Counted from the first letter of the stretch, positions 1 through 64,000 are shown. The stretch: DNA of 64,000 nucleotides from a virus (IMGVR_UViG_3300037153_000324:1-64000); one strand, 5' to 3'. Numbers and translations are program-made. Notes: generated by a model not told the origin, from the letters alone.

Positions 1-9
1 TCCGAGAAC

Positions 10-498
10 GTGACTTGGCAGCACAGTCCGAAGGGCAAGTGGTATCTCACCGAGGTTTTCAGGAATGAGCGCAGCGAGCTTGTCACTGACTACCGCGATT
101 TTCATTCGGAGTATTGCGATATCCCGGCCAAGCACGATATGGAGCAGGCTCGTCGTGATGCGCTGGTGCAGGAGGAGCAGCGTGAGCGCAAGACGGCTGC
201 TGCAAAGCGTGAGCGCATCGAGCGTGAGGAGCGTGAGCGTTATTTTCTCGCGCTGGTGGATATGACTCCCGAGGAACGGGGCAAGCGTATCGCTGAAATC
301 GAGCAGTGGTTGCGGAATTACAAAAATAATCCGCCGACGATGGATCACATGGTTGATTTCATGCGTGAGCAGCGCGAAGCTGAAGCTCGAAAGACCGAGT
401 TGGAATTCCTCAAGGCTCTGCCGCATCAACCAGAGATTCCGCAGGCCAAGAAGCCGGTTCGAAAGCGTCCTGTAAAGCGCACGACCAAGAAGGCTTGA
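10..498 (+). CDS. hypothetical early protein (coiled-coil, basic C-terminus); start may lie outside the window
   Basis: 162-aa ORF; stop TGA is embedded in the GCTTGACA promoter box. Confidence 0.7.
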   Translation: MTWQHSPKGKWYLTEVFRNERSELVTDYRDFHSEYCDIPAKHDMEQARRDALVQEEQRERKTAAAKRERIEREERERYFLALVDMTPEERGKRIAEIEQWLRNYKNNPPTMDHMVDFMREQREAEARKTELEFLKALPHQPEIPQAKKPVRKRPVKRTTKKA

Positions 499-513
499 CA
501 AGGCCGCTATAAT
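493..513 (+). promoter_or_regulatory. putative promoter GCTTGACA-N7-TATAAT
   Basis: TTGACA 495-500, TATAAT 508-513; one of four near-identical architectures. Confidence 0.65.
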
Positions 514-547
514 TACATTAGTGGCATTTTCCGACAGAGAGGCAAAT

Positions 548-769
548 ATGGTATACGACGACACAGCAATGATCCTTGACCGCTCAACGCCGGTCGCACG
601 CAAGACGCATTACTGCGACTGCTGCGAGGGAGTGATTCCGGCCGGTGAGAAGTACATGCGCGTGGTGAACAAGACTTTTGACGGTAAGCTCGTCATGGAG
701 AAATTTCACTACAGCAGCATGGAGTGCGCGATGGTGATGGAGCAGATGGTGATGGAGCAGGCGGAATGA
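548..769 (+). CDS. small Cys/His Zn-binding hypothetical protein
   Basis: ARKTHYCDCC...H...C motif; GAGAGG RBS inside the TCCGACAGAGAGG box before ATG 548. Confidence 0.7.
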   Translation: MVYDDTAMILDRSTPVARKTHYCDCCEGVIPAGEKYMRVVNKTFDGKLVMEKFHYSSMECAMVMEQMVMEQAE

Positions 770-1086
770 CAATCATGGCTCCGAAGTTCTCGCTTGGCAA
801 CATCGGAATTACGTCCGGCGCGATGCATGAGCTTTGTGAGGGGCGTGAGCAGGACGAGGTAATTCATGCCATGCGTCCGTTGCTTTGGAAGCACATGCAC
901 GGCGACTGGGGCAACGTCGATGCGCACGACAAGCGGGCAAACGAGGATGCGCTCAAGACGGGCGCTCGGATCGTGTCGAGCTACAAGCTTTTCAACGTCA
1001 AGCTCTGGATAATTACAGACGCGGCGTGGGGAGAGGACTCGCGCGTTCGGCAGGTAACGACCATTTTGCGGCCGTCTGATTATTGA
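766..1086 (+). CDS. conserved plasmid/phage hypothetical protein (HxxGDWG...WIITD...TTILxPxDY family)
   Basis: HMHGDWGNV..D..ANE.AL..G.RI.SSY and LWIITD...TTILRPSDY motifs typical of a widespread mobile-element family. Confidence 0.75.
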   Translation: MTIMAPKFSLGNIGITSGAMHELCEGREQDEVIHAMRPLLWKHMHGDWGNVDAHDKRANEDALKTGARIVSSYKLFNVKLWIITDAAWGEDSRVRQVTTILRPSDY

Positions 1087-1091
1087 CGGCC

Positions 1092-1113
1092 GCTTGACAC
1101 TTCCTGCTACAAT
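1092..1113 (+). promoter_or_regulatory. putative promoter GCTTGACA-N8-TACAAT driving a leaderless mRNA
   Basis: TTGACA 1094-1099, TGC-TACAAT 1105-1113, ATG at 1121 with no RBS. Confidence 0.65.
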
Positions 1114-1120
1114 TACATTC

Positions 1121-1387
1121 ATGGACACGCAGACCTTCACGCTCATACTGGACGGGAACAAGACTGCCGATGTGGTGGTCGAGGAATTTCATCCGGTCGA
1201 GCCAAGCGCATACGTTTGGGAGGCAGGCTGGACGTGCTACGACCTGAACACGGACACGGAGTATTTCGTGTCGCAGGCTGGCATCGTCTACAAGCAGCCC
1301 GAGAACAGGACGGTTGGAATCTGCCCCGTGGTCAAGGAGCAGGCCGACAAGCTCGAAGCTGAAATGGCAAAATGGGAGGAGAACTGA
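1121..1387 (+). CDS. hypothetical protein (leaderless)
   Basis: ORF; ATG 7 nt after the -10 hexamer. Confidence 0.7.
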   Translation: MDTQTFTLILDGNKTADVVVEEFHPVEPSAYVWEAGWTCYDLNTDTEYFVSQAGIVYKQPENRTVGICPVVKEQADKLEAEMAKWEEN

Positions 1388-1388
1388 C

Positions 1389-1550
1389 GTGCCTCTGAAT
1401 TTCACGGCTCAGTACACCGTGGAAGTGATGGCCGACGGGAAGATTTGGGTCATCACCGTTACCGCGACGAGCAAAGCTCACGCGAGAGAGGTTGCGCTTG
1501 AAAAGTGCAATATCTCCGCGAGAGTGCTATCTCCTACCAAGGAAGGATGA
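1389..1550 (+). CDS. small hypothetical protein
   Basis: GGAGGAG RBS then GTG 1389; part of ORF 1314..1550. Confidence 0.6.
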   Translation: MPLNFTAQYTVEVMADGKIWVITVTATSKAHAREVALEKCNISARVLSPTKEG

Positions 1551-1798
1551 AAATGTCCGAGACATTGACGCTCGACCAGTGCGAACAGGTCTACATGGAC
1601 GGTTGCGCCGATGAAATATCCGGCGATGTGGAAGCGCCTATGGGACACTTCTACCGTGTCGGTCGCTTCATCGTCACGACCGACTCGCAGGGATTTCACA
1701 GCCTGAGCGAGTATGCCGATGAGGAGACTGCCCACTACGAATTCGAGCAGGCCGCAGTCGCGTACGCCGAGTGGGATAGCTGGAATGACGACGCTTGA
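1547..1798 (+). CDS. acidic hypothetical protein
   Basis: AAGGAAGG RBS, ATGA overlap with the previous gene. Confidence 0.7.
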   Translation: MKMSETLTLDQCEQVYMDGCADEISGDVEAPMGHFYRVGRFIVTTDSQGFHSLSEYADEETAHYEFEQAAVAYAEWDSWNDDA

Positions 1799-1814
1799 CA
1801 GCGTGCGCTATGAT
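1793..1814 (+). promoter_or_regulatory. putative promoter GCTTGACA-N8-TATGAT
   Basis: TTGACA 1795-1800, TATGAT 1809-1814. Confidence 0.6.
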
Positions 1815-1820
1815 GGGTGC

Positions 1821-1884
1821 GTTCCTTCTCTGTCGGAGGGATGAGCACAAGAGGGGCCGGGATTCTTCCCGGCCCTTTCTTTTT
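1821..1884 (+). ncRNA. candidate antisense sRNA (~65 nt), 5' seed UUCCUUCUCUGUCGGA
   Basis: bounded by a promoter and an intrinsic terminator, no ORF, 5' end complementary to the repeated TCCGACAGAGA leader box. Confidence 0.5.
1854..1884 (+). terminator. intrinsic terminator
   Basis: GGGCCGGGA-TTCT-TCCCGGCCC followed by TTTCTTTTT. Confidence 0.85.
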
Positions 1885-1973
1885 GCGCTCGCGCCGAAAT
1901 TCCACACCGGGGCCGAGTAGCTCGCGCCAGATCGCGCCAACCACGCCGCGCCGACCGCGCCGACGCCTGCTCT

Positions 1974-2508: not shown

Positions 2509-2575
2509 GCTAAAGATTCCCGTTGAAATTACGCTGTAATTCTAGAGTGTTGTCGTGGCTGACAACATGAATGCC

Positions 2576-8640: not shown

Positions 8641-8954
8641 GAGCCTCTCTGCCAGAACCTCGTTTCGGGCAAGGGAGAACTACCCCCAAGCCTTTTCAAG
8701 CCCTTAGAAACGCTCTCAGAGGCCCGCTCACAGCCTCACTTGACCTTCCAATCGGCCACAGATAGGCTCTTGTCGAAGGCGGGTATCACCCTTCCCCCTT
8801 CAGTCGCATGTTCAGGGCCGTTTGTCTCCCAGTGGCAACCGCAGGCCACTCGTCTCAAACGGCCCTACTCCTTGCCCTCATCCTCTCTCCTCTCTTCTCT
8901 CAGAATTACACCGGCAGAAATTACACCGACGAACCGACAGGGAGGAAAAATTAC

Positions 8955-11257: not shown

Positions 11258-12943
11258 TTGGCCCGCAAAGCAGTAGCCGCAAATCCCAGGCCGAAGAGCA
11301 GAATTTCACCCATTCGCGCACTGTCCAGACCGGACGAGTGGGCGATTGGTATGGGCTTGAGAGTAGATGCACGTCCCTTCAGCCTTGAAGGGCGCGAATA
11401 CGTGCGCCAGGTGATCCGGGACTTCTCTCCCGAAATCGTGATCCCCAAGGCTGCACAGATGGCCTTCACAATTACATTCCTTACCCGCTCCCTTCACTCC
11501 GTGGTCGAGCGGAAGTGGAATGGAATGTATTTGCTCCCGCTCAAAACGGGGGCCGTTCCCTTTGTTCAAGCCAGAATCGACCCGATCATCGAGTCCAATG
11601 CCTACCTCGATGCGAAATTTGCGTCAGTGGACAACCGCCTGCACAAGCAGACCACTGACCGGGTGAACCTCTACATCAGAGGCACCAACATTTCGTCCGA
11701 GGTTCAGGAAGTTCCGGTCGATTTTGAAATTTGGGACGAGCGTGATCGGATGGTGGAAGAGAACCTAGAGGACGCACGTCACCGGATGGACGGATCGCAA
11801 GTCAAGAAGCTGGTGCAGCTTTCCACTCCGACTGTCGATGGTCATGGCGTCTATAGCGACGATGCTTGGCCTCTTTCCGATCAGCACAGATGGGAAATTG
11901 CCTGTCCCGCTTGTGGTCGTTACCAATGCCTGAATTTCGATGACAAGGAATTGGATTACACCAATCTCAAGCTCGGAGACACTGCCGACGAGTGCGTGCT
12001 CGAATGTGCGTACTGCAAATATGCATTTACCGACCTAGAGCGCAAGACCGCAAATGCGACGGGTCGATGGGTCGCTGCAAACCCAAACGGCCTGCTTCGG
12101 GGATATTTCATCAACCAGTTCAATTCCCCAACGCAGTCTTTGTGGGAAATCATGCGTGGCTATTATGCGGGGCAGACAGATCAAAGGAAATTGAAGGCTT
12201 TTTGGCAGCAGAATATGGGCAGGCCGTATTCAGCGCCGGGAGACAGGATCACCGTCGAGCTTCTAGACAAGTGCCGTCTGCGTGGTTATTCCCTCGGTGG
12301 AATTCCAACCTCCTCGATTCATCTCGGAATCGACGTAGGAAATGTAATTCACGTATGGGCGTACATGCAAGATCGTCAGAAGCGAAACTACGTCTGGCAG
12401 GTCAAGCTTTTTCGTGAGTGGAGCCAGTTGGACAAATTCCTTGGCTCGCTCATCTCCTTTGTTGGTGTCATCGACGCGCATCCGGAAAAGTCGAAAGCTC
12501 GCGAGCTTTGCATGAAATATCACGGCAAGCTCTTCATGGGATTCGAGCAAGACCGCGATCAGCAGGGTGAAATTGCGACGTGGGATAACGTGAAGCCACG
12601 TCAGGTGCCGGAAGTGAAGATCGACCGCACTCTCGCTTTCGACACTGTAATTTCACACATGATGAACGGTGCAACCGTCTTGCCTGCCAATGCCCGTGAG
12701 CTTGGCGAGGCTATGCCGATGAAGCCGTGGAATGGGCTGTATCACCATCTGATTCAGCAGGTGCGTGTCGAAGAGGAAAATACAAAAGGACAGTTGATTG
12801 CTCGTTGGAAGCGAAACAAGAACCCTGACCACTGGCATCACGCGATGATGTTCGCGACAGTGGCGCTTTTGAAAAATGCCCCGCTGCAAGTACCTGCGGG
12901 ATTTTCAAAAGCGGTTGGAGGGAGGAGTCTCGTTGGAGCGTAA
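11258..12943 (+). CDS. terL: terminase large subunit, lambda gpA family
   Basis: KAAQMAFT Walker-A variant, IWDERDRM Walker B, LSTPT, CPACG..Q Zn finger, GIDVG nuclease, DHW.HA; TTG start chosen from RBS. Confidence 0.9.
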   Translation: MARKAVAANPRPKSRISPIRALSRPDEWAIGMGLRVDARPFSLEGREYVRQVIRDFSPEIVIPKAAQMAFTITFLTRSLHSVVERKWNGMYLLPLKTGAVPFVQARIDPIIESNAYLDAKFASVDNRLHKQTTDRVNLYIRGTNISSEVQEVPVDFEIWDERDRMVEENLEDARHRMDGSQVKKLVQLSTPTVDGHGVYSDDAWPLSDQHRWEIACPACGRYQCLNFDDKELDYTNLKLGDTADECVLECAYCKYAFTDLERKTANATGRWVAANPNGLLRGYFINQFNSPTQSLWEIMRGYYAGQTDQRKLKAFWQQNMGRPYSAPGDRITVELLDKCRLRGYSLGGIPTSSIHLGIDVGNVIHVWAYMQDRQKRNYVWQVKLFREWSQLDKFLGSLISFVGVIDAHPEKSKARELCMKYHGKLFMGFEQDRDQQGEIATWDNVKPRQVPEVKIDRTLAFDTVISHMMNGATVLPANARELGEAMPMKPWNGLYHHLIQQVRVEEENTKGQLIARWKRNKNPDHWHHAMMFATVALLKNAPLQVPAGFSKAVGGRSLVGA

Positions 12944-15200: not shown

Positions 15201-15340
15201 GCAGGATCAACACAGTTCCGGGTGGCCGTGTAATTTCAGGTTACGGTGGCCCGATTCAATGGCTCAGAGAAACGAACGGCCGGAAGATTGCGAGAATTAC
15301 ACCAACTCTCGGATTTTTTGGGAGGTTGATCCGCAGGTAA
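15197..15340 (+). CDS. small basic peptide (47 aa)
   Basis: GAGGAG RBS; ATGA and TAATG coupling on both sides. Confidence 0.55.
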   Translation: MSRINTVPGGRVISGYGGPIQWLRETNGRKIARITPTLGFFGRLIRR

Positions 15341-15534
15341 TGGCACGAAAGCGCAGTGGAATCAAGATCAAGAAATCTCACCAAGGCCGCTTGCGAAGAA
15401 AAGCGGGTACAAAGAAGGGAAAGAAAATCCCGGTTTCCAAGCTCCGCTCGATGAAGAAGAGTAAAAGCGCAGCAACTCGTCGTCAGGCGACATTCGCCCT
15501 GAACGCGAGACGCTGGAATCGCGGAAGGAGGTAA
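15340..15534 (+). CDS. highly basic protein (KKIPVSKL...RRQATFA family)
   Basis: GGAGG RBS, TAATG coupling, no acidic residues. Confidence 0.75.
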   Translation: MARKRSGIKIKKSHQGRLRRKAGTKKGKKIPVSKLRSMKKSKSAATRRQATFALNARRWNRGRR

Positions 15535-29125: not shown

Positions 29126-29140
29126 GGAGGAGGAATTACA

Positions 29141-31810: not shown

Positions 31811-34116
31811 GCACTGTTCAAAATACACTGATCTGGCGTCTCACTGCCCGAGGCACGGGCGAAGTAATTTCGTCGTTCAACCAGATCGGCAGTGGTTTTC
31901 AACGTCTAGGCTCGCAGATCAATCAGCAGTCGCGGATGAGCGAGCGACTGAATGCCCAGTGGCGTGCAATGGGTACGACGATCCGCTATGCAATTGCTGG
32001 CGGAACGATTTTCGGGCTTACTCGCATGGCAAGCGAGCTAAAGGATATTCAGACGCAGCTTGGTCTAATTTCAGCAATCGCTTCACAGCCTGGCCCTGCC
32101 GGTGGCCTTGTTGGTGTGCCGTTTTCGGATCAACAGATCACGCAGCTTGGAAATAGGCTCAGACAAGTCTCTACGGATACGCTCACGCCTTTGCAAGACA
32201 TTCAATCCGCTGCACTCAACCTGCTTTCGACCGTGCAGGGGGTTCCACAAGATCAAATTTCACCAATGCTGGAAACCATCACCAAAGGAGCCAAACTCGC
32301 GCAGACTCCGACTGAGGATCTGACCAAGGCAATTACAACGATGAACATTGCCTTCGGCCAGGCAAACAATGTCAGGAATGTGCAGCAAGGGGTGCAACGC
32401 TGGTTCTCACTGATTCAGCTTGCCCCTGGCGGTGTTTCTGCTGGCCCTGAAATTGTGCAGCAACTTTCACCTGTTGCTGCGGTAGCTCGGTTGCAGCCTG
32501 GCATAAATACAACCGGCCGTGAAGCGCAGGCGCAAATGATGGCTCTCATGCTCGGTGCAGTGCGCACAGGTGCCACACCGTCCACGGCTGGACGAGGATT
32601 GGCATTCCTGATTCAGAGCATCTTGCAACCAAAAACAGCCGCATCGAAGCAGGCACTTGCTTCAATGGGAATTACACCTGAGTTTACCCACCGAGAAGGT
32701 TTCTGGCCTTCGTTGATGAAGCTGTTTCAGCACATCAATTTCAAGGGTGATCCCAAGGCACTTGCAGCAATTCCAGACGATCAGCTAGAGGATATGGGTA
32801 CCTCAGCGCTCAAAGGGCTAGACCCTCAGCAAGCAGAGCTATTGAATCGTGCAATTCCGCGAATTCATGGAGTGCGTACGGCTGTAATTCTGGCATCTCA
32901 ACTTCAGAAGCATGGGCAGGTGCAGTCGCTTGCACAGGATTACCAGATCATGCTCGGGCATTTCAATCAGCATGACAAGGATGTACTGCTTCTCAACCGC
33001 GCATGGGATCGTTTTCGGAATCGGTCAAGATTGCAAGAAGCGGTAACTGCAATTCACAACATGCAGCTTCAGGTTGCTCAGACATTTCTTCCTGTTTTGA
33101 ATTACGCTGCCAGAGGAGCATCATACGTCTCAAGGCAGGCCCAAGCACATCCGACAATTACAAGAGATGTTACGCTTGCGATGACTGCTGCTATCGGTGG
33201 TGCTGGAATTCTTAGGTTCCTTGGCGGTGGCGGTGGAATTCGCGGATTGCTGCGCAGGGGAGCAGGTGGCGGCGGTGAAGCAATTGTCAGGTCACAGGCT
33301 GTTGCTGCACTTGCAAATACAGGCGTGCTCGGAGGAAGTCCGCTCAATCCGATGTACGTCGTTGTGGTCGATCAGCTTTTCGGATCGAGTGCGCGTAGCC
33401 CAACTGGTGATCCGCTATCTCCGACCGGCCCCAACCCGTATAGGAAGGGTGGAAGTCGCATTGCTGGTTGGGCAAAGAAAATTGGAGGGCCGCTTGGTGG
33501 TTTGTTTGCTGAAGGTGCGGCTGAAATTGGTGCTGGTACAGTAGCTACGGGTGCGGCTCTCTTTGCTGCAATTCCACTTTTGCTAAGCGGCGGTGGTGCA
33601 AAAACTGCCGCAGGGAGACGAGCACAAGCTGCAACTCGCGGAGGAGCCAATCCACTGCTGGCGAAGGTTCTCCAAAACCATGGTCTACATTACGATCCGC
33701 AAAACTACCCGAAATTTCACCATTTGTTGACTGGTTTCACAAAGGGTAGCGTGACGGCAGACCAGTTCGAGAATTACCTTCAAAAGCACAGAGATGTTCT
33801 ACAAGCGCTAGGCGTAATTTCACGACCGCAAACGCCTAGGCAGAACATGCGACAAGAGCCATACTACGCTGCTCAAGCGATGCTCAAGACTTATGAAATT
33901 GCCAGAGCACAACAGGTGCTTCACAGTCCTTACGTGACGGACGTTTCAGGGCTACAGGTTCACAACATCAAGGGCAGGGCTGTAGTGGATTTCACAGTGA
34001 AGATCGAGCAGCCTGGAAAGAAAACGAAAATCGTACGCGAGCATGTCCCAATGGATTTGTGGACACACAAAGCTCCTGCATCCCGAGGCAAGACTGGAAA
34101 GACAGCGAGGAATTAG
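31807..34116 (+). CDS. tape measure protein
   Basis: 769 aa, Ala/Gly/Gln-rich helical, GATPSTAGRGL motif, position. Confidence 0.85.
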   Translation: MSTVQNTLIWRLTARGTGEVISSFNQIGSGFQRLGSQINQQSRMSERLNAQWRAMGTTIRYAIAGGTIFGLTRMASELKDIQTQLGLISAIASQPGPAGGLVGVPFSDQQITQLGNRLRQVSTDTLTPLQDIQSAALNLLSTVQGVPQDQISPMLETITKGAKLAQTPTEDLTKAITTMNIAFGQANNVRNVQQGVQRWFSLIQLAPGGVSAGPEIVQQLSPVAAVARLQPGINTTGREAQAQMMALMLGAVRTGATPSTAGRGLAFLIQSILQPKTAASKQALASMGITPEFTHREGFWPSLMKLFQHINFKGDPKALAAIPDDQLEDMGTSALKGLDPQQAELLNRAIPRIHGVRTAVILASQLQKHGQVQSLAQDYQIMLGHFNQHDKDVLLLNRAWDRFRNRSRLQEAVTAIHNMQLQVAQTFLPVLNYAARGASYVSRQAQAHPTITRDVTLAMTAAIGGAGILRFLGGGGGIRGLLRRGAGGGGEAIVRSQAVAALANTGVLGGSPLNPMYVVVVDQLFGSSARSPTGDPLSPTGPNPYRKGGSRIAGWAKKIGGPLGGLFAEGAAEIGAGTVATGAALFAAIPLLLSGGGAKTAAGRRAQAATRGGANPLLAKVLQNHGLHYDPQNYPKFHHLLTGFTKGSVTADQFENYLQKHRDVLQALGVISRPQTPRQNMRQEPYYAAQAMLKTYEIARAQQVLHSPYVTDVSGLQVHNIKGRAVVDFTVKIEQPGKKTKIVREHVPMDLWTHKAPASRGKTGKTARN

Positions 34117-43885: not shown

Positions 43886-44037
43886 TGCCAAATCCCGAAC
43901 GTGATCCGCTTGACACATATTTCACTCGTCTGGCGGAAGTACCGCAAGGTAAGGAAGATCCCAACCCGCAAGATTACACCGATGCAATGGCGAATCTCGA
44001 AAAGCGAATTCAAAAGCTAGAGGAAAAGAGTGATTGA
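43885..44037 (+). CDS. small hypothetical protein
   Basis: TAATG-coupled 50-aa ORF (MPNPERDPLD...). Confidence 0.45.
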   Translation: MPNPERDPLDTYFTRLAEVPQGKEDPNPQDYTDAMANLEKRIQKLEEKSD

Positions 44038-44503
44038 CTCGTACAACATCGAACTTCCTGATTATGAAATTGGTGACTTCGGCTTGAAGCCCGGAGAAGT
44101 CAAGTTCACGTATGACGACGAGATGAAGTCGATCATGCCGGAAGCCGAGAAAGCTTTTGCGCTTATTTTCGAGCAGACTCAGCATGAGCTAGGAATTTCA
44201 CTGAGTATGAAAACAGATGTTGAAATGTCGATTGTTCCGCTTTGGCTAATGGCTGTCTATGGCCCCGGTGATGGTATTGGGCTGCACCGTGAGGGAAGTG
44301 AAAATACCCACACGCTTCTGTGCGCTATGAACGATCTACCGGAAGATGCTGGCGGCGATCTTCAGATCGAAAATCATGATAAGAAGTATGCGCATCGCCG
44401 TGGCCGAGTTGTAATTTTCCCCAGTGATGCGCTGCATGGAAATCAAATGATTACCAAGTCTGTAGTCCGAATAGGACTGGCGGGATTGGTGAGCGTCTTG
44501 TGA
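44030..44503 (+). CDS. 2OG-Fe(II) oxygenase
   Basis: Y.PG..IGLHRE, GGDL, G.VVIFPS..LH......R. Confidence 0.75.
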   Translation: MIDSYNIELPDYEIGDFGLKPGEVKFTYDDEMKSIMPEAEKAFALIFEQTQHELGISLSMKTDVEMSIVPLWLMAVYGPGDGIGLHREGSENTHTLLCAMNDLPEDAGGDLQIENHDKKYAHRRGRVVIFPSDALHGNQMITKSVVRIGLAGLVSVL

Positions 44504-44512: not shown

Positions 44513-44749
44513 ATGTACATAATCGCAGCAGTCGGTGACGGATGGCTCGCGGTTGCTGCTGTTATAACGGCAATCGGGGGGATAATTTCAAGTATTGCTG
44601 CCGCAAAAAGAGCTAAGAAAGAAGGGATCGAAGAATCGAATGCAAAATGCCATGAGCGATTGGTCAAGATGCAAGAAGAATCCGAGAGATTGGCTGCTGA
44701 ATTACATCGCATGAAGATGATACATTACGACGAAACCGAGTACGAATGA
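44513..44749 (+). CDS. holin-like membrane protein (TM plus coiled coil)
   Basis: WLAVAAVITAIGGIISSIAA then a charged tail. Confidence 0.55.
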   Translation: MYIIAAVGDGWLAVAAVITAIGGIISSIAAAKRAKKEGIEESNAKCHERLVKMQEESERLAAELHRMKMIHYDETEYE

Positions 44750-45387
44750 AAATATTGCTCTTTTTCTCGGCAGTTTGTTGGATTGCGACGGCAGGACTGG
44801 TCGCTGCAATGAGCCTGAGCGCGGCCCCAGTCGAGACGGTTACGACCACGATTCAAGGCCCGCCAGGAGCCACAGGAGCCACAGGGACGGCCGGAAAGCC
44901 CGGAAAGGCTGGTCAGAAGGGGTCAACCGGAAACGCTGGCTCAGAAGGCCCACAGGGGCCGCAGGGAGTCCAAGGCCCACAGGGCATTCAAGGGCCAATA
45001 GGGCCGACAGGCTCACAGGGAGTTTCAGGTAGCCGTGGAGCACAAGGCTTACAGGGCCTAGCGGGGAAAGCTGGCTCATCTGGCCCACAGGGTGCTCAAG
45101 GTGCTCAGGGAATTTCAGGGCCGAAAGGTGATAAAGGCGACACCGGAGCAACCGGCCCGCAAGGCCCGAAGGGCGACACTGGTTCACAGGGATCGACAGG
45201 CCCACAAGGAGCACAAGGGCCAGTAGGAGCAACTGGGTCAACTGGTGCGACCGGCGCAGCAGGGCCACCGGGAATTCAAGGGCCACCTGGCCCGGTATGT
45301 CCTACGGGTTTTACGCTTCAGACAATTTCAGTACACGAACGCGATCCTGAAGGCACTGCCATAATTTCCGTCTGCGTCCAAGGGTGA
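44746..45387 (+). CDS. signal/TM-anchored collagen-like protein
   Basis: ~48 Gly-X-Y triplets, N-terminal hydrophobic segment, C-terminal CP.GF...VC. Confidence 0.85.
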
Positions 45388-46758: not shown

Positions 46759-47361
46759 TTGAAAATTCTCGCCGTACTAAGCTGCGCTGCCTTCGTCGCC
46801 GGAGGCGGCGTAGTGGCATCAGCGAGTGCTAGCGCCAGCCAGGCGCAGGTAAAAGCACAAATGACCAAACTGAAAATCAAGATCAACTATGCCACTCGGT
46901 TCGTCAAGCACGACCGCTCTGTAATTCGGGCAGGCGTAGAGTGGATTCCATTAGGTGCGAGCGTGCAGATGCTCGATCCCCACCCCAACATGGAATTACA
47001 CCGGAAACACATGCGCACGATGTACAGAATCGTCCGACAGAGCAGGGTAAAGCTGGCAGAATTGCAGAAAGTCTACAGGAGGCTGTATATCAGCCTAACT
47101 CGACCGGCTCATTACACTCAGTGGCTTTGCATTCACCACTTCGAAGGAGCGTGGAATGCGAACACTGGGAATGGGTATTACGGCGGTTTGCAAATGGATT
47201 ACGGCTTTATGTCCACGTACGGTTGGAGTCTGCTGAAATTGAAGGGTACGGCGGACAGGTGGACACCCTTGGAGCAGATGCAGGTCGCTGAGAGAGCCTA
47301 TGCTTCTGGCAGGGGCTTCAACCCCTGGCCGAACACAGCGAGGTACTGCGGGTTACTGTGA
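46759..47361 (+). CDS. secreted Rpf-like (resuscitation-promoting factor) transglycosylase
   Basis: signal peptide; WLCIHHFEG.W..NTGNGYYGGLQM...Q..VAE......G..PWP....CG. Confidence 0.85.
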   Translation: MKILAVLSCAAFVAGGGVVASASASASQAQVKAQMTKLKIKINYATRFVKHDRSVIRAGVEWIPLGASVQMLDPHPNMELHRKHMRTMYRIVRQSRVKLAELQKVYRRLYISLTRPAHYTQWLCIHHFEGAWNANTGNGYYGGLQMDYGFMSTYGWSLLKLKGTADRWTPLEQMQVAERAYASGRGFNPWPNTARYCGLL

Positions 47362-49838: not shown

Positions 49839-50034
49839 CGAGCGCTATGTGGACAGGGTTGTTGTCGTCAAGAAAGGCGATCATGCTTTTGTCAGACTCG
49901 TTTCGAACAACGGTGAAATTTTGCTGGTGTCCGAAAACTTCCAGAATATGTCATGGGCTGCGGCAGTAGGTATCAAACTGGCCGAGCAATTGGGTGTTTC
50001 CTATGAAGTGCTAGACGTGGAGGTAGCAAAATGA
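49825..50034 (+). CDS. DUF1508/YegP-like protein
   Basis: RLVSNNGEILLVSE.F. Confidence 0.65.
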   Translation: MKMTDERYVDRVVVVKKGDHAFVRLVSNNGEILLVSENFQNMSWAAAVGIKLAEQLGVSYEVLDVEVAK

Positions 50035-50363
50035 AGCCTGGTGAAATTGTCAAGGTCAAGCAGCGGACGGGTGAGCGTGGTCGTCCGAAGGAAGTGACAG
50101 TTCTTGGCAGCAAAGACAAAGATGAAATCAAGATCCTCTCGCAGAACAAGGCAGCGCCGGAAGTCGAGATTTACGACCGTGAGCGCTCTGCTGAGCCAGA
50201 AAGGACGGTTGAGTTAGGGCATGTGCCCACCCGAGTAACCGAAGCTGATAAGATTCGCTACAAGCCACGCAAACCGGAGGAGCCTGAAATTCGGCTGAAC
50301 GAGGCCGATCACAAGAAGTGGGAGAAAATCAAGACGTTGGACGAGGACGATGATGTGAAATGA
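50031..50363 (+). CDS. charged hypothetical protein with RGRP motif
   Basis: GGAGG RBS, ATGA overlap. Confidence 0.65.
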   Translation: MKPGEIVKVKQRTGERGRPKEVTVLGSKDKDEIKILSQNKAAPEVEIYDRERSAEPERTVELGHVPTRVTEADKIRYKPRKPEEPEIRLNEADHKKWEKIKTLDEDDDVK

Positions 50364-50519: not shown

Positions 50520-50789
50520 TGCGTGCCTAGGGATTTGCGTGATCCTCAAGCGATAGGTCACTGGTTTGCCGAGCTTCGGGAAGCGCATCCCAACATGAAG
50601 GCGCATCAAATTGCTGACTACATTGACAGCGAAGTAGATGTGCTGAATTACACCGAATTGGAACAGACGATAGGCCAAGAAACTGTAATTCGATATCGCA
50701 GTGAGCTTTTCGAGCGTGCTGAGCAAGGGGATAGGTACGCGAAGTCGAGGCTCGATGGGCTTGCGTTCGAGGAGCCTAGCGACGGATGA
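50520..50789 (+). CDS. hypothetical protein
   Basis: AGGAGG RBS near 50512; exact start approximate (GTG ~50523). Confidence 0.55.
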   Translation, partial: CVPRDLRDPQAIGHWFAELREAHPNMKAHQIADYIDSEVDVLNYTELEQTIGQETVIRYRSELFERAEQGDRYAKSRLDGLAFEEPSDG

Positions 50790-51886
50790 ATTACAAAGGT
50801 AGGAATATTGACCCGTTGAGCGTGTGGGATCGCTATGTCGAATTTCCGCCAGGGATCGACGCCGATAAGTCGATGTTTCTTCCACTAGTTCTGTGCCCAA
50901 ATCCTGAACATGACAATTCTCGCTCACCTGCATTTCAGATCAATACGACTGCGCCGCTTGTACATTGTTTCGCTCACTGTGGAATTTCAGGCACGTACGA
51001 TCATGCCGTGGCGATGATCGAGGGTTACTACGATGACCTAAAGGTGGATCTAGGTGAAATTGACAGAATCCGGCAGAAGTCGGTAAAGGAGCGCTCGCGT
51101 GCGGAGCACGATAAAGTGGCTCGCTATTTCAGAGCGCAGCGAAAAGCAAGCAAGCTCATTCTTCGAGGCTCCACTCGCTCCAAATTTTCTCGAAAAACCA
51201 GTGCCAGGAAAACGCAGGAAAAGAAATCCCAAATCAAGATCGACCTGAACTTCGACACTTTCATTCCGCAGATCGGCTTGGAATATCTCGAAGGCCGAGG
51301 AATTACAGCAGAGTCGATTGCGCGGTGGGGGTTGGGCTGGCACCCTGACGAGAAGCGGCTCGTTATTCCAGCGCACGATGACAGGGGTACGCTCAGGTTT
51401 CTGATTCGGCGGGCGGTGAAGGATTCCCAGTGGCCCAAGTACCTGTACAGTGAGGGCTACCCCAAGACTTCCCTGCTCTTTGGGGGGTTGCAAACTGACC
51501 TAGGGATGGTACAATCCCGTGGACTGATCCTCGTAGAAGGGAGTTTCGATACGATCAAGCTTCACCAATACGGATTGACGTGCGCAGCGGCCATTCTTGG
51601 CACAGGAATTTCACCCGAGCAGATGCGCATAGTGATGAAATTGAGGCCCAAGCGAATTTTCCTCATGTTCGACCGCGATACGGCCGGTGTCACTAATATC
51701 TCGCTCGCAGCGAAATTGCTTGCCAGGAAATATCCGCTGTTCGTGTGCCGATATCCCAGGGGAAAATTCGATCCGGCCGAGCTAGTGAAGAAGGAGGCGT
51801 GGAATTCATTGATGAGAGCAGTGCCCTATTCGTTATGGAATAGGAAATCGAGACGGCCCGAATCGTCTCTAACCGAAAGGAAATAA
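50786..51886 (+). CDS. dnaG: DNA primase (CHC2-like Zn finger plus TOPRIM)
   Basis: CP...H.N..P.F.....HCF..CG; PKYL; LVEGSFD; FDRD.AG; DP.EL. Confidence 0.9.
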   Translation: MNYKGRNIDPLSVWDRYVEFPPGIDADKSMFLPLVLCPNPEHDNSRSPAFQINTTAPLVHCFAHCGISGTYDHAVAMIEGYYDDLKVDLGEIDRIRQKSVKERSRAEHDKVARYFRAQRKASKLILRGSTRSKFSRKTSARKTQEKKSQIKIDLNFDTFIPQIGLEYLEGRGITAESIARWGLGWHPDEKRLVIPAHDDRGTLRFLIRRAVKDSQWPKYLYSEGYPKTSLLFGGLQTDLGMVQSRGLILVEGSFDTIKLHQYGLTCAAAILGTGISPEQMRIVMKLRPKRIFLMFDRDTAGVTNISLAAKLLARKYPLFVCRYPRGKFDPAELVKKEAWNSLMRAVPYSLWNRKSRRPESSLTERK

Positions 51887-51887: not shown

Positions 51888-53027
51888 TTGGCGAGGACAA
51901 GAGAGAAGTTTCAGATTCGCCGCGTCAAGTCGAAAGAGGATCGCAAGCGGCCGTCTGTTTTCATGCGATTGAAAACGGATGAGGCGTTCAAGGGTGTGGC
52001 GTTGTTCGAGCCAGATCCCGAGTTGGACGACAACCCCGGCTATTTCGAGTATTACGACCACTGGGATCAGCAGGGGCAACAGTACGTCCCTTGTGCGGGT
52101 GAAATGTGCCCCTTCTGCAAGGCGAACGACAATCCTTCGACTCGGGCAATGACCGTCTGGTATTTCCCTGAGGCGGCAGACGTGAAAGACCAGATCAAGG
52201 TTTTCACGATGAATTTCAGCACGATCAACGACATTACCGACGAGGCCGAGGAAGAGGACGGCTTGATCGGTAAGAAGGTGCGCATCAAGCGTCTGTCCGA
52301 CAAGGGCGATTACAAGGTGCGCGTGCTCACCGAGAAGGGCCTGACCGAAACGCAGTTGAAAAAGGTCATGGCTCGTCTCGATGAAGTGTTCCCTGACGGT
52401 CTGGAAGGCATTACGCTCGCACAGTTGAAGCGTCAGATGGAGCGCTTGCGTGCTCTGGACGAGTTGGAGGACGACGACGAGGACGACGAGCAGGACGAGC
52501 AGCCCAAGGCTCGCCGTGGTCGGGCAATTTCAAAGGACGAGGAAGAGGACGAAGAGGAAGAGGACGACGAAGAGGAAGAGGACGAAGAGGAAGAGGACGA
52601 CGAAGAGGACGAAGAGCCGACCGACGAAGAGGACGAAGAGGAGGAAGAGGAGGAGGACGACGAAGAGGACGACGACGAGGAAGAGGACGAGGAAGAGCAG
52701 GAGCAGGCTGAAATTACAGCGGCCGAGTACGAAGTTCTCAAGTCGAGCGAGCGTGACGACACGTTCGAGTTGCAGAACGACGAGGGCAAGGTGAAGATGT
52801 GGCTCGGAGAGAACGTCGAGGTTGACTACGACGAATTCCCGAAGGGCACGCCTGTCACCGTCTCCGCGCTTCAGGACGACGAGGGCGATTGGATCATCAC
52901 TGAAATCAAGGTGAAAAAGCGTCGTGGTCGTCCGCCTGCGTCCAAGGCCAAGACGCGGACAAGCCGCGCAGCCTCGTCTCGTTCCAGCGGTTCGACTCGC
53001 GGCCGGGGTAGGCCGCGTAAGCGGTAA
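51888..53027 (+). CDS. gp32-like ssDNA-binding protein with long acidic tract and C-terminal AT-hooks
   Basis: H...C....CPFC Zn motif, ~75-residue D/E tract, RRGRPP and RGRGRPRKR. Confidence 0.7.
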   Translation: MARTREKFQIRRVKSKEDRKRPSVFMRLKTDEAFKGVALFEPDPELDDNPGYFEYYDHWDQQGQQYVPCAGEMCPFCKANDNPSTRAMTVWYFPEAADVKDQIKVFTMNFSTINDITDEAEEEDGLIGKKVRIKRLSDKGDYKVRVLTEKGLTETQLKKVMARLDEVFPDGLEGITLAQLKRQMERLRALDELEDDDEDDEQDEQPKARRGRAISKDEEEDEEEEDDEEEEDEEEEDDEEDEEPTDEEDEEEEEEEDDEEDDDEEEDEEEQEQAEITAAEYEVLKSSERDDTFELQNDEGKVKMWLGENVEVDYDEFPKGTPVTVSALQDDEGDWIITEIKVKKRRGRPPASKAKTRTSRAASSRSSGSTRGRGRPRKR

Positions 53028-53422: not shown

Positions 53423-53755
53423 ATGACATTGCCACTTCTAACGTCCGCTCAGCTTGTCGAGGAAATTGCCGAGGATACGGGCTATTCCAAGTCCGATGTG
53501 CGGCATTTCATGGACTCGCTGGCGCGGGCGATCACGGATCATGTTTCCGATTGTGAGAGAGTCAGGATTGGGAACCTCGTCCAGATCGAGCCGAAGTTGA
53601 AAAAAGCACAGAAAAAGCGGATGGGTCGGAATCCGGCTACAGGTGAGGACATTGAAATTGCTGCCAAGCCAGCGAGTGTGCGCGTAGGTGTTCGGCCACT
53701 CGCTGGCTTGAAGGACGCGATGCCGTCCGTGCAGAAGCTTAGGAAGCGAGTCTGA
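53423..53755 (+). CDS. HU/IHF-family DNA-binding protein
   Basis: QLVEEIAEDTG.SK, RMGRNPATGEDIEIAA. Confidence 0.9.
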   Translation: MTLPLLTSAQLVEEIAEDTGYSKSDVRHFMDSLARAITDHVSDCERVRIGNLVQIEPKLKKAQKKRMGRNPATGEDIEIAAKPASVRVGVRPLAGLKDAMPSVQKLRKRV

Positions 53756-54645: not shown

Positions 54646-57600
54646 CTATATAGAATTACATAATCACTCCACCTTCAGTATTTCGGACGGCTTTGGTTCA
54701 CCGCAAGCTATTGTTGATCGTGCGAAGGAACTAGGGTGGAATGCCGTTGCATTGACGGAGCACGGGCACATGATAAGCGCTCCGACTTTTTACAAGGCCG
54801 CTAGAACCGCTGGAATCAAGCCGATCATCGGTTGCGAGCTTTACGTTACAGGCGACTGGTCGTTTGGTATGCGGGAGAAGGTTGCGCTTACTGAGCAATT
54901 TCATCTTACGGTGCTAGCACTCTCGAAGGAGGGCTACCAGAATCTTGTTGCCTGGACGAGCGAGGCGATGAAGCGTGAAAATTTCTACCGCAAGCCGCGC
55001 ATCTCTGTTGTGCGCATGGCAGAGATTGCACCGTGGCCGTTGCACCACAACGTTGTGCTTTCCGGGTGCCTGGCTTCGGAGCTTTGTCGTTCGCTTGAGA
55101 ATGGAAATGGCTTGGGGATTGGAATGGAGTATGCGTTACAAATGAAATCTTTGTTCCCGAATTTCTATATCGAGATTCAGGATCACAAGATTTCAAAGTT
55201 TGACGATGACCGCTACCCGGCCTATCAAGAGCTTCTGGCAAAAGAAGTCATAGTTCAAGGGAAGCTCCTAGAAATTTCAACACTGACTGCTGTGCCTGCA
55301 ATTTTGACGAATGACTCACATCTTCAGAGGCCGCAGGATAGAAAAGCGCATGTAGCGATGAAGGCATCCGCATGGCGATCAAGGGATGACCTTCATTATG
55401 GCCGCTCGCAGGAACAGGTAATTACCTCATACCTGGCGGACTATGCTTATTTTGGTAATTACATGCGAGATATGGAGCAAGTCTGTGATAATGCTGATTT
55501 ACCAAGGGCGTGTCTGGCTTCTGTTTCTGAAATTGTCGAAGCCGCAGATATCGTTCTCGACCCACTCGACAACACGGTATATTCGATTCCCTTTTCAGGC
55601 GAATCCGACCCCCTACACGCTCTCCGTCGAGCGAGTAAGTCTCGTCTGGCAAATGGGGTTTGGAAGCACGGTCGGATTGCCCGTGAGAGATTTGAGCATG
55701 AACTAGAGTCGATGGGGGATTTTGCTCATTATCTCGTCCTCATGGCGAAATTCATCAAGGAAGCGCATCGGCAGGGAATTCTGACGTGGACGCGGGGATC
55801 GGCTGCTAACTCATACCTGGCCTACTGCCTCGGGATTCATGAAATTGATTCCATCGAGTACGGTCTGACGTTCTCGCGTTTCTTCAATCCGGCTCGAAAG
55901 AAATTGCCGGATATCGACGTGGACATAGATCCGGAGCGGTATGACGATTTCATGCGCATTGTGCAGGAGCACATGGAGCCGTTGATCGGGGCTGGTCAGG
56001 TAGTGCGCATGTGCGATTTCGGGTTGGCGCAGAATCGAGCCGCATTCAGAATGGCCGCATCTGCTCTTGGAATTCCCAAGGAGGAGCAAGACGAAATTTC
56101 AAAGCTCCTTCCACAGATGATCGACTCTGGAATGGTGGACGAGGATACCGATGTGTTCATTGCGCTGCGTGAGGATTATCCCGAGCTATATGAAATTACG
56201 TCAGCGATCTTTGATTCGGTCAAGTCAGTGGGCCAGCACGCGAGCGCATGGGTATTCGGTACTGCTGATCGCAAGGTGGAGGACTGGATTCCTCTTTATC
56301 TAATTGCATCGAGTAATGCGCTGGTGACTCAATACGACTTCCACCAGATCGAAGATTTCGGTTTGGTGAAAATGGACTTTCTTCGGCTCAAGACTCTGAG
56401 TATCGCGAAAAAGGTCATGCAGATGGTCGGGAAGTCGCCAATGGAATTCTACGACGTGCCGCTCGATGACTCCAAGACTTTCGAGATGATGCGTGCGGGT
56501 GACGTAGAAGGCGTCCACACTCTGCAAGGGAAGGAAACGCGGCGTGGTATCGTAGAGATGCAAGTTGAAAATGTCCACGACGTAATCGTGGCGGCGGCGT
56601 TGTATCGTCCTGCGCATACCCGTGAAGGTCGAGATAAACTCTACCTACAGCGGAGGCGTGGTGATGAAATTCCCTCTTACCCGCACTCAATTGTTGAGCG
56701 AATTGTTGGTGGAACGTTCGGAATTCCGGTATTTCAAGAGCAGGCGATGGAGATTGGTTATGCCGTCGGGATGGATGATGCAGGTGTCGATGACATTTAC
56801 CAAGCCATCAAGAAGGCAAAAGGGGTTGGCAAGGGTGCAAAGGAAGCATTCTCTAAGATCGAGCCGAAATTCCTAAAGGCCGCAAAACGAAAAATGAAAC
56901 CGCATGAGGCGAAAGGAAGTTGGCTGTATGTTCAAGGTTTCCAGGGTTACGGTTTCAACAAAGGTCACGCAAGCTCGTATGGTGTGCTTGCGACGAGGAT
57001 GGCGTATCTGAAATGTCACTATCCGGTCGAATTTTTCGCAGCGATCCTCGATACGTTTCCCGAGAAGGCGTCGTACATTGCTGCGGCGAGAAACGCAGGG
57101 TTGAAATTCTTGCCACCGGACGTGAATCATTCTGGCAAGGGGTTCGGTATCGACCGTCAGTTAGGCGGAATTCGAGTTGGGCTAGGAAAGATTCACGGCT
57201 TGGGGCCGGTGGCGGTTGATGAAATTGTTAGGGGCCAGCCTTTTCAGACCTACGACGACTTTCTTGGACGTACGACGCGCAGGGCAGTCAACGTCAAGCG
57301 CCTTGAAAATCTCCGCACGGTGGGTGCGTTCTCCTCGCTCGGCCTTCATCACAGAACGCGAGACGAGGAGGAATTTCAACTACTTGGATTCACGCTCGGC
57401 CGTCCTATCGCTCTCCGGGGCTGCAAGCCTCGGCACGTTGGTGCTCGCACATCGGATAGCGGCTGGAAGCACTTGGGACGTGAGAAGGGGGTGGAGCTTA
57501 CTGCGGGCCGTGCAAGTGTGAGTAAGCTGTTCTGGATTCCGCCTGATGTGAAATTGGAACTGAAGGCTTCTCCATGGGCACAGGTGAAAACATGGCTGAT

Positions 57601-62394: not shown

Positions 62395-62758
62395 TATTCC
62401 GCTAGATTTCACTCGTCTTTCCAACCGGGGAATTGGCGCACTGCACTCCCGCTATGCAGTGCGTCACGCGCATGCCATTTTCAATTGTTCGATCTTGAGC
62501 GCAGACCTGTCTCAGCTTCGCCGGGATCTGAAGATCGAGAAATCGAAATTTCGGATCAGGAACAAGGGCGAGAAGCTGAATATCGTCAATGCCATGATGG
62601 AGGACGATGACGGCATTGTTGAAATTGAGGATAAGATCCTAGAGCTAGAAGCCAAGGTCGGTGTGCTGTCGGCTATTGCGGCGGGCTATGAATCCCTGCG
62701 TAATGCGGCATCGAGGGAGATTTCACGGCGGCTTTCGGAGCGGGCTGCGGTGGACTGA
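62309..62758 (+). CDS. coiled-coil protein, possibly UvsY-like recombination mediator
   Basis: helical; ends ASREISRR; follows RecA/nucleases; start uncertain. Confidence 0.45.
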   Translation: MRTPRDSKFQFLRDAGIIAPEVIPSDDDNIPLDFTRLSNRGIGALHSRYAVRHAHAIFNCSILSADLSQLRRDLKIEKSKFRIRNKGEKLNIVNAMMEDDDGIVEIEDKILELEAKVGVLSAIAAGYESLRNAASREISRRLSERAAVD

Positions 62759-62765
62759 CCAGGGC

Positions 62766-62793
62766 TTGCATTATCATCCCTAGGTGGTATAAT
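62766..62793 (+). promoter_or_regulatory. sigma70-type promoter with extended -10
   Basis: TTGCAT-N16-TATAAT with TGG before the -10. Confidence 0.65.
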
Positions 62794-62826
62794 GGGCCTG
62801 GCCCGTTCGACCGCTAGCTAGAGAGG

Positions 62827-63126
62827 ATGGTAATGCCGCGCACGAAGAAGCCCAAGGTAGAAATTTCATTCAGAAAGGCAGGAAGGAGTCCGTCTGAGCG
62901 TAAGACTGCTTTGCCACAGCCGACGAAAGAGCCTGGTGGCTTGTCTCCTCTTGCGCAGTACATCGAGGACAACGCAGGCTCGAAATTGACTAGGGCTGAG
63001 TTGGTCGAGCAATTTCAAGAGTATGACTGCGATCACAAGAATCGACTGCGGACTGTCAGTGCTTCTACCTTCGATCTGTATACGTGCCCGAATTGTGGCC
63101 TGATCGACAGAGTGGAGAAGTCATGA
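62827..63126 (+). CDS. Zn-ribbon hypothetical protein
   Basis: CDH...CPNCG. Confidence 0.65.
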   Translation: MVMPRTKKPKVEISFRKAGRSPSERKTALPQPTKEPGGLSPLAQYIEDNAGSKLTRAELVEQFQEYDCDHKNRLRTVSASTFDLYTCPNCGLIDRVEKS

Positions 63127-63368
63127 CTGATTTTATTCTGAAAAAGTCGCTTGGCCCGCTCAGTTCGGGTACACGACTGAAATTGCGTGGTTACATCGAG
63201 GGAACGAGCTACGCGCATGTACAGCTTTTTTCACGTCCTGAGTCCGGTTCAGATTTCGAGAAACTGTGCAAGAAGTACGGAGCGAGCGGTATCTTTGAAA
63301 TTGAATCCGATTTGCTCGTCAGACTCAGAGAGACGCGCAATGGAAAAACGCGAGAGGAATTGTCATGA
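63123..63368 (+). CDS. hypothetical protein
   Basis: GGAG RBS, ATGA overlap. Confidence 0.6.
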   Translation: MTDFILKKSLGPLSSGTRLKLRGYIEGTSYAHVQLFSRPESGSDFEKLCKKYGASGIFEIESDLLVRLRETRNGKTREELS

Positions 63369-63616
63369 AAATGGTGCCCGAGTTGGTCAAAGGTCAGATG
63401 TATCACGTCGTCTACAATCACGAAGCTGCGAATGGTCGCATTGTGCAAAAGGAATTTGTCGGCCAGTATCTCGGCCCGAGTGTCTACGGTCGAGAAGATT
63501 TCAGCTTGCGCCCTATCGCTGGCACATCCTCGATTGATCTGTCGCAGATTGTGGCGGCTGAGGAGGTATCCGCTTCGACCAAGCCCACCATGCCTATGCC
63601 GATGCCAAAAGTGTAG
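63365..63616 (+). CDS. hypothetical protein
   Basis: GAGG RBS, ATGA overlap. Confidence 0.6.
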   Translation: MKMVPELVKGQMYHVVYNHEAANGRIVQKEFVGQYLGPSVYGREDFSLRPIAGTSSIDLSQIVAAEEVSASTKPTMPMPMPKV

Positions 63617-63642
63617 GGCAAAATACAGAAAGGAATCCGACG

Positions 63643-63960
63643 ATGCTACAGGTAATTTCAAAGAACGTCAACGCAGTCCTTCCGGAAGCCAACCATCATG
63701 AGGTTGAAATTGGCCCGTTCAGGGATGCTCTCATCAAGGGCTTGCTTGCGAGCAAGCTTGCCAAGGATGACCTAGTGCATCGCGTCAGGCAGGGTCGTAG
63801 CGGCCCGAATTCCTGGTCGCTCCGTATTTCAACCGGAGCCGTGTACAGATTTCGCATGTACGGCCCGTACACGGCACTGGAAGTGAAGAATCAGAACAAA
63901 AATTTCTTTTTCTTGACGCCTGCGCAGGCGTACAAGTGGGCGGCGGCACTCTCGGCGTGA
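63643..63960 (+). CDS. hypothetical protein
   Basis: GAAAGGA RBS. Confidence 0.65.
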   Translation: MLQVISKNVNAVLPEANHHEVEIGPFRDALIKGLLASKLAKDDLVHRVRQGRSGPNSWSLRISTGAVYRFRMYGPYTALEVKNQNKNFFFLTPAQAYKWAAALSA

Positions 63961-64000
63961 AAAAGAAATTGACACTGGTCGGAATTGCCCTTTGCCTGTC

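Follow-up and report, generated by a model that had tools for sequence, protein, structure and literature searches.

A stretch of viral DNA 64,000 nucleotides long (IMGVR_UViG_3300037153_000324:1-64000, hereafter the window) carries the heptamer TGWAATT, or its complement AATTWCA, in 280 copies, where dinucleotide-preserving shuffles yield only 20.3 ± 4.5 (maximum 32). The window comprises bases 1–64000 of a complete virus record of 74,373 bp with 127-bp terminal repeats, here labeled G000. The complete genome contains 322 copies, 148 on the plus and 174 on the minus strand, with a mean gap of 230 bp (median 172 bp) and a peak density of 7–10 per kb at 2–8 kb. The word is kept by selection at synonymous sites, at the level of the amino acid sequence and in non-coding DNA, and the resulting lattice of sites is a heritable trait of a clade of phages, between the lineages of which its sequence drifts. 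In a search of the literature we found no published description of the lattice, and nothing relevant on this word or on over-represented phage heptamers.

A genome-wide over-representation of the word had been noticed by eye in a first-pass annotation of the window, and the excess outlasts every null model that was run. In 56 kb of confidently assigned coding sequence there are 218 copies, which compares with 38.3 ± 5.7 when synonymous codons are shuffled within genes, with 18.3 ± 4.1 when the order of the codons is shuffled, and with 90.9 ± 6.8 when the synonymous shuffle also retains the dinucleotides at the codon junctions. Even a dicodon-preserving Euler shuffle, which is over-conservative on purpose, gives only 122.8 ± 8.3 copies (maximum 139), so that the excess does not disappear under a codon or dicodon null, the outcome that the annotation had named as fatal to its proposal. 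Non-coding DNA (6.7 kb) is richer in the word than coding DNA, with 41 copies versus 2.1 expected. Relative to the synonymous null the word is enriched 2–10-fold whichever usable frame or orientation is considered, both in G000 and in a relative designated AP; in G000 the sense copies number 100 versus 18 and the antisense copies 121 versus 20, and 148 of the 601 ATT codons lie inside the word. The individual sightings of the annotation were largely accurate: the word is present at positions 511, 702, 1011, 1111, 1185, 1398, 8949, 15533, 15649, and 29134, the approximately 12 copies estimated for 32001–34000 were counted as 12, those in 55001–57000 as 7 rather than 5–6, and the rough expectation of well under one copy per 2 kb agrees with the shuffle figure of 0.6 per 2 kb.

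No other heptamer of the genome comes near the enrichment of TGAAATT (206 copies versus 16.8 expected) and TGTAATT (116 versus 5.8). Single-base variants of the word are found at 0.3–4 times expectation and the word itself at 12–20 times; its flanks carry almost no information, and up to ±60 bp neither an extended flanking consensus nor an AT-content profile was found, codon periodicity being all that is visible there. TGWAATT is therefore one compact asymmetric word rather than a compositional smear. TGATATT and TGTTATT occur only 5 times and 2 times, respectively, TGAAATT being preferred 40-fold over TGATATT. The full palindrome TGWAATTWCA, in which two overlapping copies share their AATT, occurs 9 times in G000, where about 35 would follow from the counts had the sequences on either side of AATT been chosen independently of each other. 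Because the full palindromes are under-represented, the unit is the asymmetric heptamer and not a palindrome, and a single orientation apparently satisfies the need at any one spot. The word had also been proposed to fill the spacer between ribosome-binding site and start codon. This holds at 8949, 15649, and 29134, where it stands between a GGAGG-type site and the start, but not at 15533, where GGAGG precedes the word and no start codon follows it.

Lattices of this kind were found in about 24 relatives and amount to 4–9 sites per kb in six genomes (G000, G003, G004, G005, G006, and AP, the five besides G000 being complete or near-complete). All 16 IMG/VR contigs with a large terminase (TerL) 56–65% identical (GC content 47–60%) show the TGWAATT excess; three contigs with TerL 35–37% identical show none. 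Beyond this TerL set the same word is used by G003, by contig L100 and, weakly, by contig L242. Other lineages use other words: G004 has TGWAAT followed by T or C (TGWAAT(Y)), L143 has TGAAAA(C) plus TGAAAT, G006 has TGAAAA, and AP and G005 have TGACAA more than TGAAAA, with approximately 590 copies each (8–9 per kb). Constant across the lineages is TG followed by an A-rich body, while the distal bases vary. In an alignment of TerL a few sites are found at the same codon in 9–10 of 17 genomes and most sites are lineage-specific, which indicates that sites are both retained and turned over. No comparable word was found in phages with a DnaE identity of 32% or less. With respect to the searches it should be mentioned that a scan of the collection for clusters of three copies, overrun by contigs rich in AT, delivered one new lattice contig, L100, and that single-protein scans with DnaE and with a 302-residue AT-hook protein found no relatives, whereas an alignment of DnaE did. 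Distant relatives (L017–L019, L148–L151, and L155) show a mild excess of CTTGG-type words (CTTGGT, TCTTGG), TGCCAAG reaching 0.65–0.8 per kb. A distant DnaE-bearing phage contig (L165, IMGVR_UViG_3300035685_000001) has 14 copies of CGATCGC, the core of HIP1, versus 0.5 expected and is presumably a cyanophage sharing the word of its host.

As far as can be told from the available candidate-host genomes, the word is specific to the phages, although the host of G000 itself may be a different one. AP is a 70.8-kb contig that was binned with an Acidobacteria metagenome-assembled genome. Of the 912 copies of TGACAA in this bin, 369 are on the AP contig, where the word is 43-fold denser than in the rest of the bin, and TGWAATT is not enriched in the bin. 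In 121 genomes of the same phylum TGWAATT reaches at most approximately 1.3 per kb, and this in genomes that are rich in the reversed control word as well; two of these genomes (G030 and G055) are unpublished, and the result does not depend on them. A host genome with the same bias, which had been named as a second way in which the proposal could fail, is thus not seen in the sole candidate-host data, which may not represent the host of G000.

The sites show no strand polarity and no origin-linked switch along G000 (orientation runs test, z = 0.12). The orientation classes of adjacent sites occur at approximately 50:25:25 with similar median gaps. When the copies of both orientations are combined, the coefficient of variation (CV) of the gaps is 0.62–0.76 in G003, AP, G005, and G006 and 0.89 in G000, where random placement would give 1.0, and in all five genomes it is lower than the CV of either strand taken alone. 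In the first four it is also lower than in a shift null, in which the sites of one strand are circularly shifted against those of the other (P < 0.0005 each), and therefore copies of opposite orientation repel each other. Pooled gaps shorter than 30 bp are found at 0.04–0.5 times expectation and those of 10–30 bp at 0.16–0.41 times; in both word groups the gap frequency steps up at 60 bp, gaps of 60–200 bp are enriched up to 2-fold, and long gaps are depleted. In G005 and G006 (loci L231–L238) the pair distances show a spectral peak at about 20–21 bp, in G005 with up to 20 times the median power, and inconsistently so in other genomes; this distance could correspond to two helical turns or to seven codons. 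The proposal that the word is an iterated functional mark is well supported, since the word is held against coding constraint, characterizes a clade, shows even spacing and is missing both in distant phages and in the candidate-host bin. For a packaging signal, one of the functions suggested in the annotation, nothing speaks, the 322 copies being without polarity.

How may such a mark be used? Even spacing of the combined set and repulsion across orientations fit a reader of double-stranded DNA that has a footprint, and are unlike what is expected of strand-specific priming. We therefore tentatively favor, at somewhat less than an even chance, that TGWAATT is the docking word of a double-strand DNA-binding protein encoded by the phage. 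The phage would keep one word roughly every 100–250 bp throughout its genome in either orientation, and the putative reader would sit on this DNA at regular intervals, with about 60 bp apparently claimed by each unit that is bound. A protein that reads the word and is itself phage-encoded could co-evolve with it. The purpose, judged from the genome-wide distribution, may be architecture or compaction, or a labeling of the phage's DNA as self, by which it would be protected or selectively handled.

Three groups of candidate readers are common to all six lattice genomes (Table 1). If there is a docking protein, then the foremost candidate, although it too falls short of being probable, is a small winged-helix protein of the MerR/excisionase type, which is kept in all six genomes and ends in an invariant GRP, and for which homologues were found only within this clade. 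It shows weak matches to MerR_1/HTH_17 (E 2e-4 for the best member) and to the MerR structure 4ua1 (E 3e-4), and lacks a dimerization or effector domain. The HU-like protein is a more doubtful choice. Its gene lies upstream of that for DnaE and is syntenic in all six genomes, and the protein diverges unusually fast, being only 23–31% identical to its orthologues in the phages using TGAMAA, where neighboring genes are at 40–50%; in these orthologues the DNA-binding arms are altered and a Lys-rich tail has been added. Equally doubtful as a reader is the remaining group, formed by the SAP-like or AT-hook proteins with basic tails, or else by a gene that has escaped recognition. In the structure model of the 302-residue SAP-like protein two small helical domains are confident and the rest is disordered, and Foldseek found no match to the model in the PDB. 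The basic tail of the SSB-like protein carries RGRP AT-hooks in G000 and G003 and is Lys/Gly/Ser-rich and hookless in the four relatives with words lacking AATT; its Cys-rich motif could bind zinc. Between the N-terminal and the second domain of this protein (residues 195–275, approximately) lies an acidic tract of almost only Glu and Asp, which is conserved in all six genomes as a feature but not in sequence. For the protein that is listed as a minor candidate, a search of five relatives detected no homologue.

Table 1. Coordinates of sites and genes of G000 referred to in the text (positions are those of the window, where applicable).
Feature	Position	Strand	Length	Remarks
TGWAATTWCA palindrome	12646..12655			two overlapping copies with shared AATT; others at 15229, 29278, 35051, 52709
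AATTACA spacer	29134..29140	+		between GGAGG ribosome site and TTG start (29141)
2OG-Fe(II) oxygenase	44030-44503			just upstream of collagen-triple-helix-repeat gene (44746-45387)
Rpf-type transglycosylase-like domain protein	46759-47361		200 aa	PF06737, E 2e-8
Protein with N-terminal RGRP motif	50031..50363	+	110 aa	minor candidate reader
DnaG-type primase	50786..51886	+		CHC2-like zinc motif, Toprim domain; reader if the word is a priming site
SSB-like protein	51888..53027	+	379 aa	Cys-rich motif, long acidic tract, basic C-terminal tail
HU/IHF-family protein	53423..53755	+	110 aa	Pfam Bac_DNA_binding, E 9e-18; candidate reader
SAP-like protein			302 aa	at G000 70638-71546; disordered basic tail, AT-hook; candidate reader
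Free-standing HNH-AP2 homing endonuclease	L020:7109-7600			adjoins the SF2 helicase
SF2 helicase with inserted HNH-endonuclease intein	L020:7629-9842 (G000 67629-69842)
MerR/excisionase-type winged-helix protein	70203-70574 (outside window)		orthologues 82-125 aa	invariant C-terminal GRP; candidate reader

The annotation had thought of AT-hook proteins as readers, an idea with no more than circumstantial support. The RGRP hooks of the SSB-like and the SAP-like protein, together with a more basic wing, are confined to the two genomes with AATT in their word, and the orthologous proteins of the four others, which use TGAMAA or TGWAAT(Y), are without RGRP hooks. Since the two genomes are close kin, this covariation counts as one evolutionary event. 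Left unexplained by AT-hooks alone are the invariant TG, the relatives using TGACAA and the strong preference for TGAAATT: for hooks of the HMGA type any run of 4–6 A/T pairs is enough and A.T is little discriminated from T.A, which does not fit with 206 copies of TGAAATT next to 5 of TGATATT and 2 of TGTTATT.

Several points weigh against docking sites. The readers are candidates, and their binding to the word is a prediction from sequence. The link between candidates and lattice is confounded by phylogeny, the candidates being genes of the clade and the covariation of hooks with AATT a single event. In G000 itself the spacing signal is weak (CV 0.89; P = 0.02 versus random and P = 0.16 versus the shift null), and in G004 it is absent with the word as defined in our analysis. 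There is no consistent 10–11-bp phasing of the sites, as would reflect the 10.5-bp helical repeat, and the flat flanks show neither the extended consensus nor the AT footprint that might remain from a complex with wrapped or bent DNA. BldC and Xis, the proteins that the winged-helix candidate most recalls, use tandem repeats of 9–10 bp, whereas close copies are avoided in the G000 clade. A conserved host factor might be the reader instead, with the low probability given below. Nor is it obvious why a phage should need hundreds of docking sites.

A modification function had been suggested for the word, and it found no support. A six-frame search of the complete genome with PF00145, PF01555, and PF02086 revealed no methyltransferase of the C5, N4/N6, or D12 class, a scan of about 60 proteins of G000 revealed no genes for a hydroxymethylase, a glycosyltransferase or deazaguanine synthesis, and no match to Vsr was found among the scanned proteins. 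At the same time the avoidance of restriction sites in the genome is extreme. TTAA does not occur at all where about 199 copies are expected, and of the 64 six-bp palindromes 23 are wholly absent, including CTGCAG, GAGCTC, CCCGGG, CTCGAG, CAGCTG, and AGATCT; CGATCG is found 2 times versus 59 expected and ATCGAT 2 times versus 46, and there are hardly any copies of CACGAG, GAGTTC, and GAGGTC, which are not palindromic. In the relatives AP and G003–G006, 24–31 six-bp palindromes are missing from each genome; in the outgroup G002 the number missing is 10, and AGCT occurs a single time versus 172 expected. Such avoidance suggests that the DNA of G000 is ordinary and exposed.

An alternative explanation is that the word marks the start sites of the DnaG-type primase of the phage. 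The template would then read 5'-AATTWCA-3', its 3' A being cryptic; synthesis would begin opposite C and yield the primer GWAAUU, and an unusually long recognition sequence would force the phage to keep many sites. The sites of gp4 from phage T7 consist of a cryptic base plus the primer, a layout that the word resembles; the invariant end of the word is TG (CA on the template) and its variable part lies in the direction of synthesis, and G000 has genes for a DnaB helicase and for a DnaG-like primase that bears a CHC2-like zinc motif. Strand-specific priming, however, predicts that each strand is even by itself and that the two strands are independent, whereas in G003, AP, G005, and G006 regularity is greater for both strands together than for either one, and opposite orientations repel each other. 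Neither a strand switch nor polarity is found along the genome, and one site per 60–230 bp is far denser than the initiation of Okazaki fragments requires, so that we regard this explanation as rather unlikely. Another possibility is that the word is the target of a DNA-modifying or nicking enzyme of an unrecognized family, from phage or host, with the lattice spreading the mark. Short asymmetric words of 6–7 bp with drifting specificity are typical of the targets recognized by methyltransferases or by Type I, Type III, or BREX systems, and about half of the tested phage proteins are without a family match, among which a novel enzyme could hide. We know of no rationale, however, for the enrichment rather than the avoidance of such a target; the negative searches for methyltransferases and other modification genes speak against it, the extreme avoidance of restriction sites would be needless if the DNA were broadly protected, and an exclusion zone of about 60 bp is unexpected for an enzyme that turns over. 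This makes an enzyme target improbable.

The same low probability is given to a conserved host factor that reads the word and is mimicked or exploited by the phages, be it via a Chi-like signal for a helicase-nuclease, via a nucleoid protein or via an uptake-type signal. Uptake sequences are also neutral in orientation and evenly spaced. Lambdoid phages enriched in Chi are known (Zheng et al., 2025, PMC12315714). But Chi has polarity, of which there is none in G000, and Chi-rich phages are devoid of a Rec module, whereas G000 encodes RecA and a PD-(D/E)XK nuclease. The lack of enrichment in the Acidobacteria bin of AP and in the 121 genomes of that phylum is not what this explanation predicts either, and the word shifts between related phages faster than would a core factor of the host. 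Least probable of all, in our opinion, is that there is no reader and that the lattice is the by-product of a mutational or biased-repair drive, as has been proposed for HIP1, or the vocabulary left over when restriction sites and TA-containing words are avoided. The vocabulary of G000 is indeed strongly restricted, central one-base neighbors of the word are mildly depleted (e.g., TGAAGTT with 3 copies versus 11.6), and a repair drive can in principle yield large excesses. There is, however, no pool of neighbors big enough for some 300 extra copies, no methyltransferase was found in the six-frame search and no Vsr match among the scanned proteins, and neither a drive nor an artifact of avoidance predicts even spacing or repulsion across orientations. 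Moreover, relatives that are equally restricted use quite different words, including TGACAA, which is not AT-rich.

Comparisons of the word with HIP1, uptake sequences and stoperators, as drawn in the annotation, hold as analogies only, since the lattice lacks at least one defining feature of each of these systems. HIP1 (GCGATCGC) of cyanobacteria is likewise a short word in huge genome-wide excess, in coding and non-coding DNA, with variants that differ by lineage. It is palindromic, cellular and linked to cognate methyltransferases, whereas the lattice word is asymmetric and forms the full palindrome less often than expected, the search for methyltransferases found none and CGATCG is itself avoided in G000. 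The uptake sequences of Pasteurellaceae (USS) and Neisseriaceae (DUS) are, like the lattice word, short and asymmetric, equally frequent on both strands, located within genes in preferred frames and spaced more evenly than by chance; the lattice shares their strand balance (148 versus 174 copies) and, in five of the six genomes, their evenness (combined CV 0.62–0.89). Uptake sequences are, however, a trait of the chromosome of a competent host, kept by an uptake bias, with 9–12 bp and approximately one copy per kb, whereas the lattice word is phage-specific, has 6–7 bp and 4–9 copies per kb and drifts from one related phage to the next. Stoperators of Cluster A mycobacteriophages and the Chi sites of enriched lambdoid phages are also asymmetric protein-recognition words in many dispersed copies, also within genes. 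Stoperators have 13–14 bp, number about 25–35 per genome and are oriented with transcription, as compared with 7 bp and 322 copies, sense and antisense alike, in G000. Chi is a word of the host, is polar and is enriched in phages without recombination genes (PMC12315714), none of which applies to G000 in the data examined, the host comparison being that with the candidate-host bin.

A further comparison is with BldC from Streptomyces, a MerR-like winged-helix protein consisting of the domain only. As a monomer it reads an asymmetric site, with AATT in a narrowed minor groove and a C-G pair in the major groove; the Arg that contacts this pair makes YpG-type contacts in its relative RacA (PMC5859096). 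The word of G000 can be written as AATT-W-CA and the clade encodes a MerR-like winged-helix protein with a GRP tail, so that a resemblance to BldC and Xis may be drawn by analogy. This does not mean that the sites are the same. The BldC unit has 9 bp (AATTNNNNC), and in G000 CA comes one base after AATT, a spacing of 1 bp as compared with 4; the TGACAA of relatives is without AATT, unlike the site of BldC with its AT-rich minor-groove element. BldC and Xis from phage lambda, which forms a cooperative filament, bind tandem head-to-tail repeats at a few loci, whereas G000 has hundreds of copies genome-wide that avoid each other within about 60 bp. Repeats at a pitch of 9–10 bp are not a feature of the G000 clade, where gaps of 10–30 bp are at 0.16–0.41 times expectation.

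The remaining gene content of G000 is that of a phage with a large terminase, a portal and baseplate proteins of the myovirus type. It encodes DnaB, the DnaG-type primase, a PHP-domain polymerase with an N-terminus that looks DnaE-like, RecA, the PD-(D/E)XK nuclease and an intein-bearing helicase, which is adjoined by a free-standing homing endonuclease (Table 1), as well as the HU-like protein and a transglycosylase resembling Rpf. A search for tRNA genes gave none. There is no close cultured relative, the best TerL match by tblastn being 24% identical, and a megablast of 24 kb of G000 against isolated phages gave no match and hence no host by that route. The sequencing runs that contain G000 place it in soil metagenomes only, with small shares in the two RNA runs. 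With respect to the host phylum the hints are weak and diverge: the Rpf-type domain is typical of Actinobacteria and the bin of AP points to Acidobacteria. The 2OG-Fe(II) oxygenase was considered as a DNA-modifying enzyme and rejected; its gene is located just upstream of a collagen-repeat gene, and the enzyme is more likely a prolyl hydroxylase, with a collagen-like fiber protein as its probable partner.

Returning to docking sites, the most complete form that this reading can be given is a clade of soil phages of approximately 65–75 kb with a self-marking or chromatin-like system, in which a reader, most likely the BldC/Xis-like winged-helix protein together with the HU-like protein and the proteins with disordered basic tails, nucleates units of about 60 bp on a genome-wide word lattice and thereby coats, compacts or selectively handles the phage's own DNA, told apart from that of the host, word and reader co-evolving into lineage-specific codes (TGWAATT, TGAAAW, TGACAA). 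We consider it unlikely that all of this is correct. If a protein does read the lattice, about 3–5% of the sequence of these phages would be devoted to a genome-wide address system that is paid for in codon choice and protein sequence. The lattice also calls for caution with gene callers and codon-usage models, given the share of ATT codons that lie inside the word. For the biology of the phages an address system would mean a new layer of genome organization, written in a simple lineage-specific code the evolution of which can be traced across relatives, and the way in which a phage genome without modification is distinguished from the DNA of its host could find an explanation in it. It would also provide a handle by which members of an uncultured group of soil phages can be recognized by sequence alone, and a natural set of orthogonal protein-DNA pairs.

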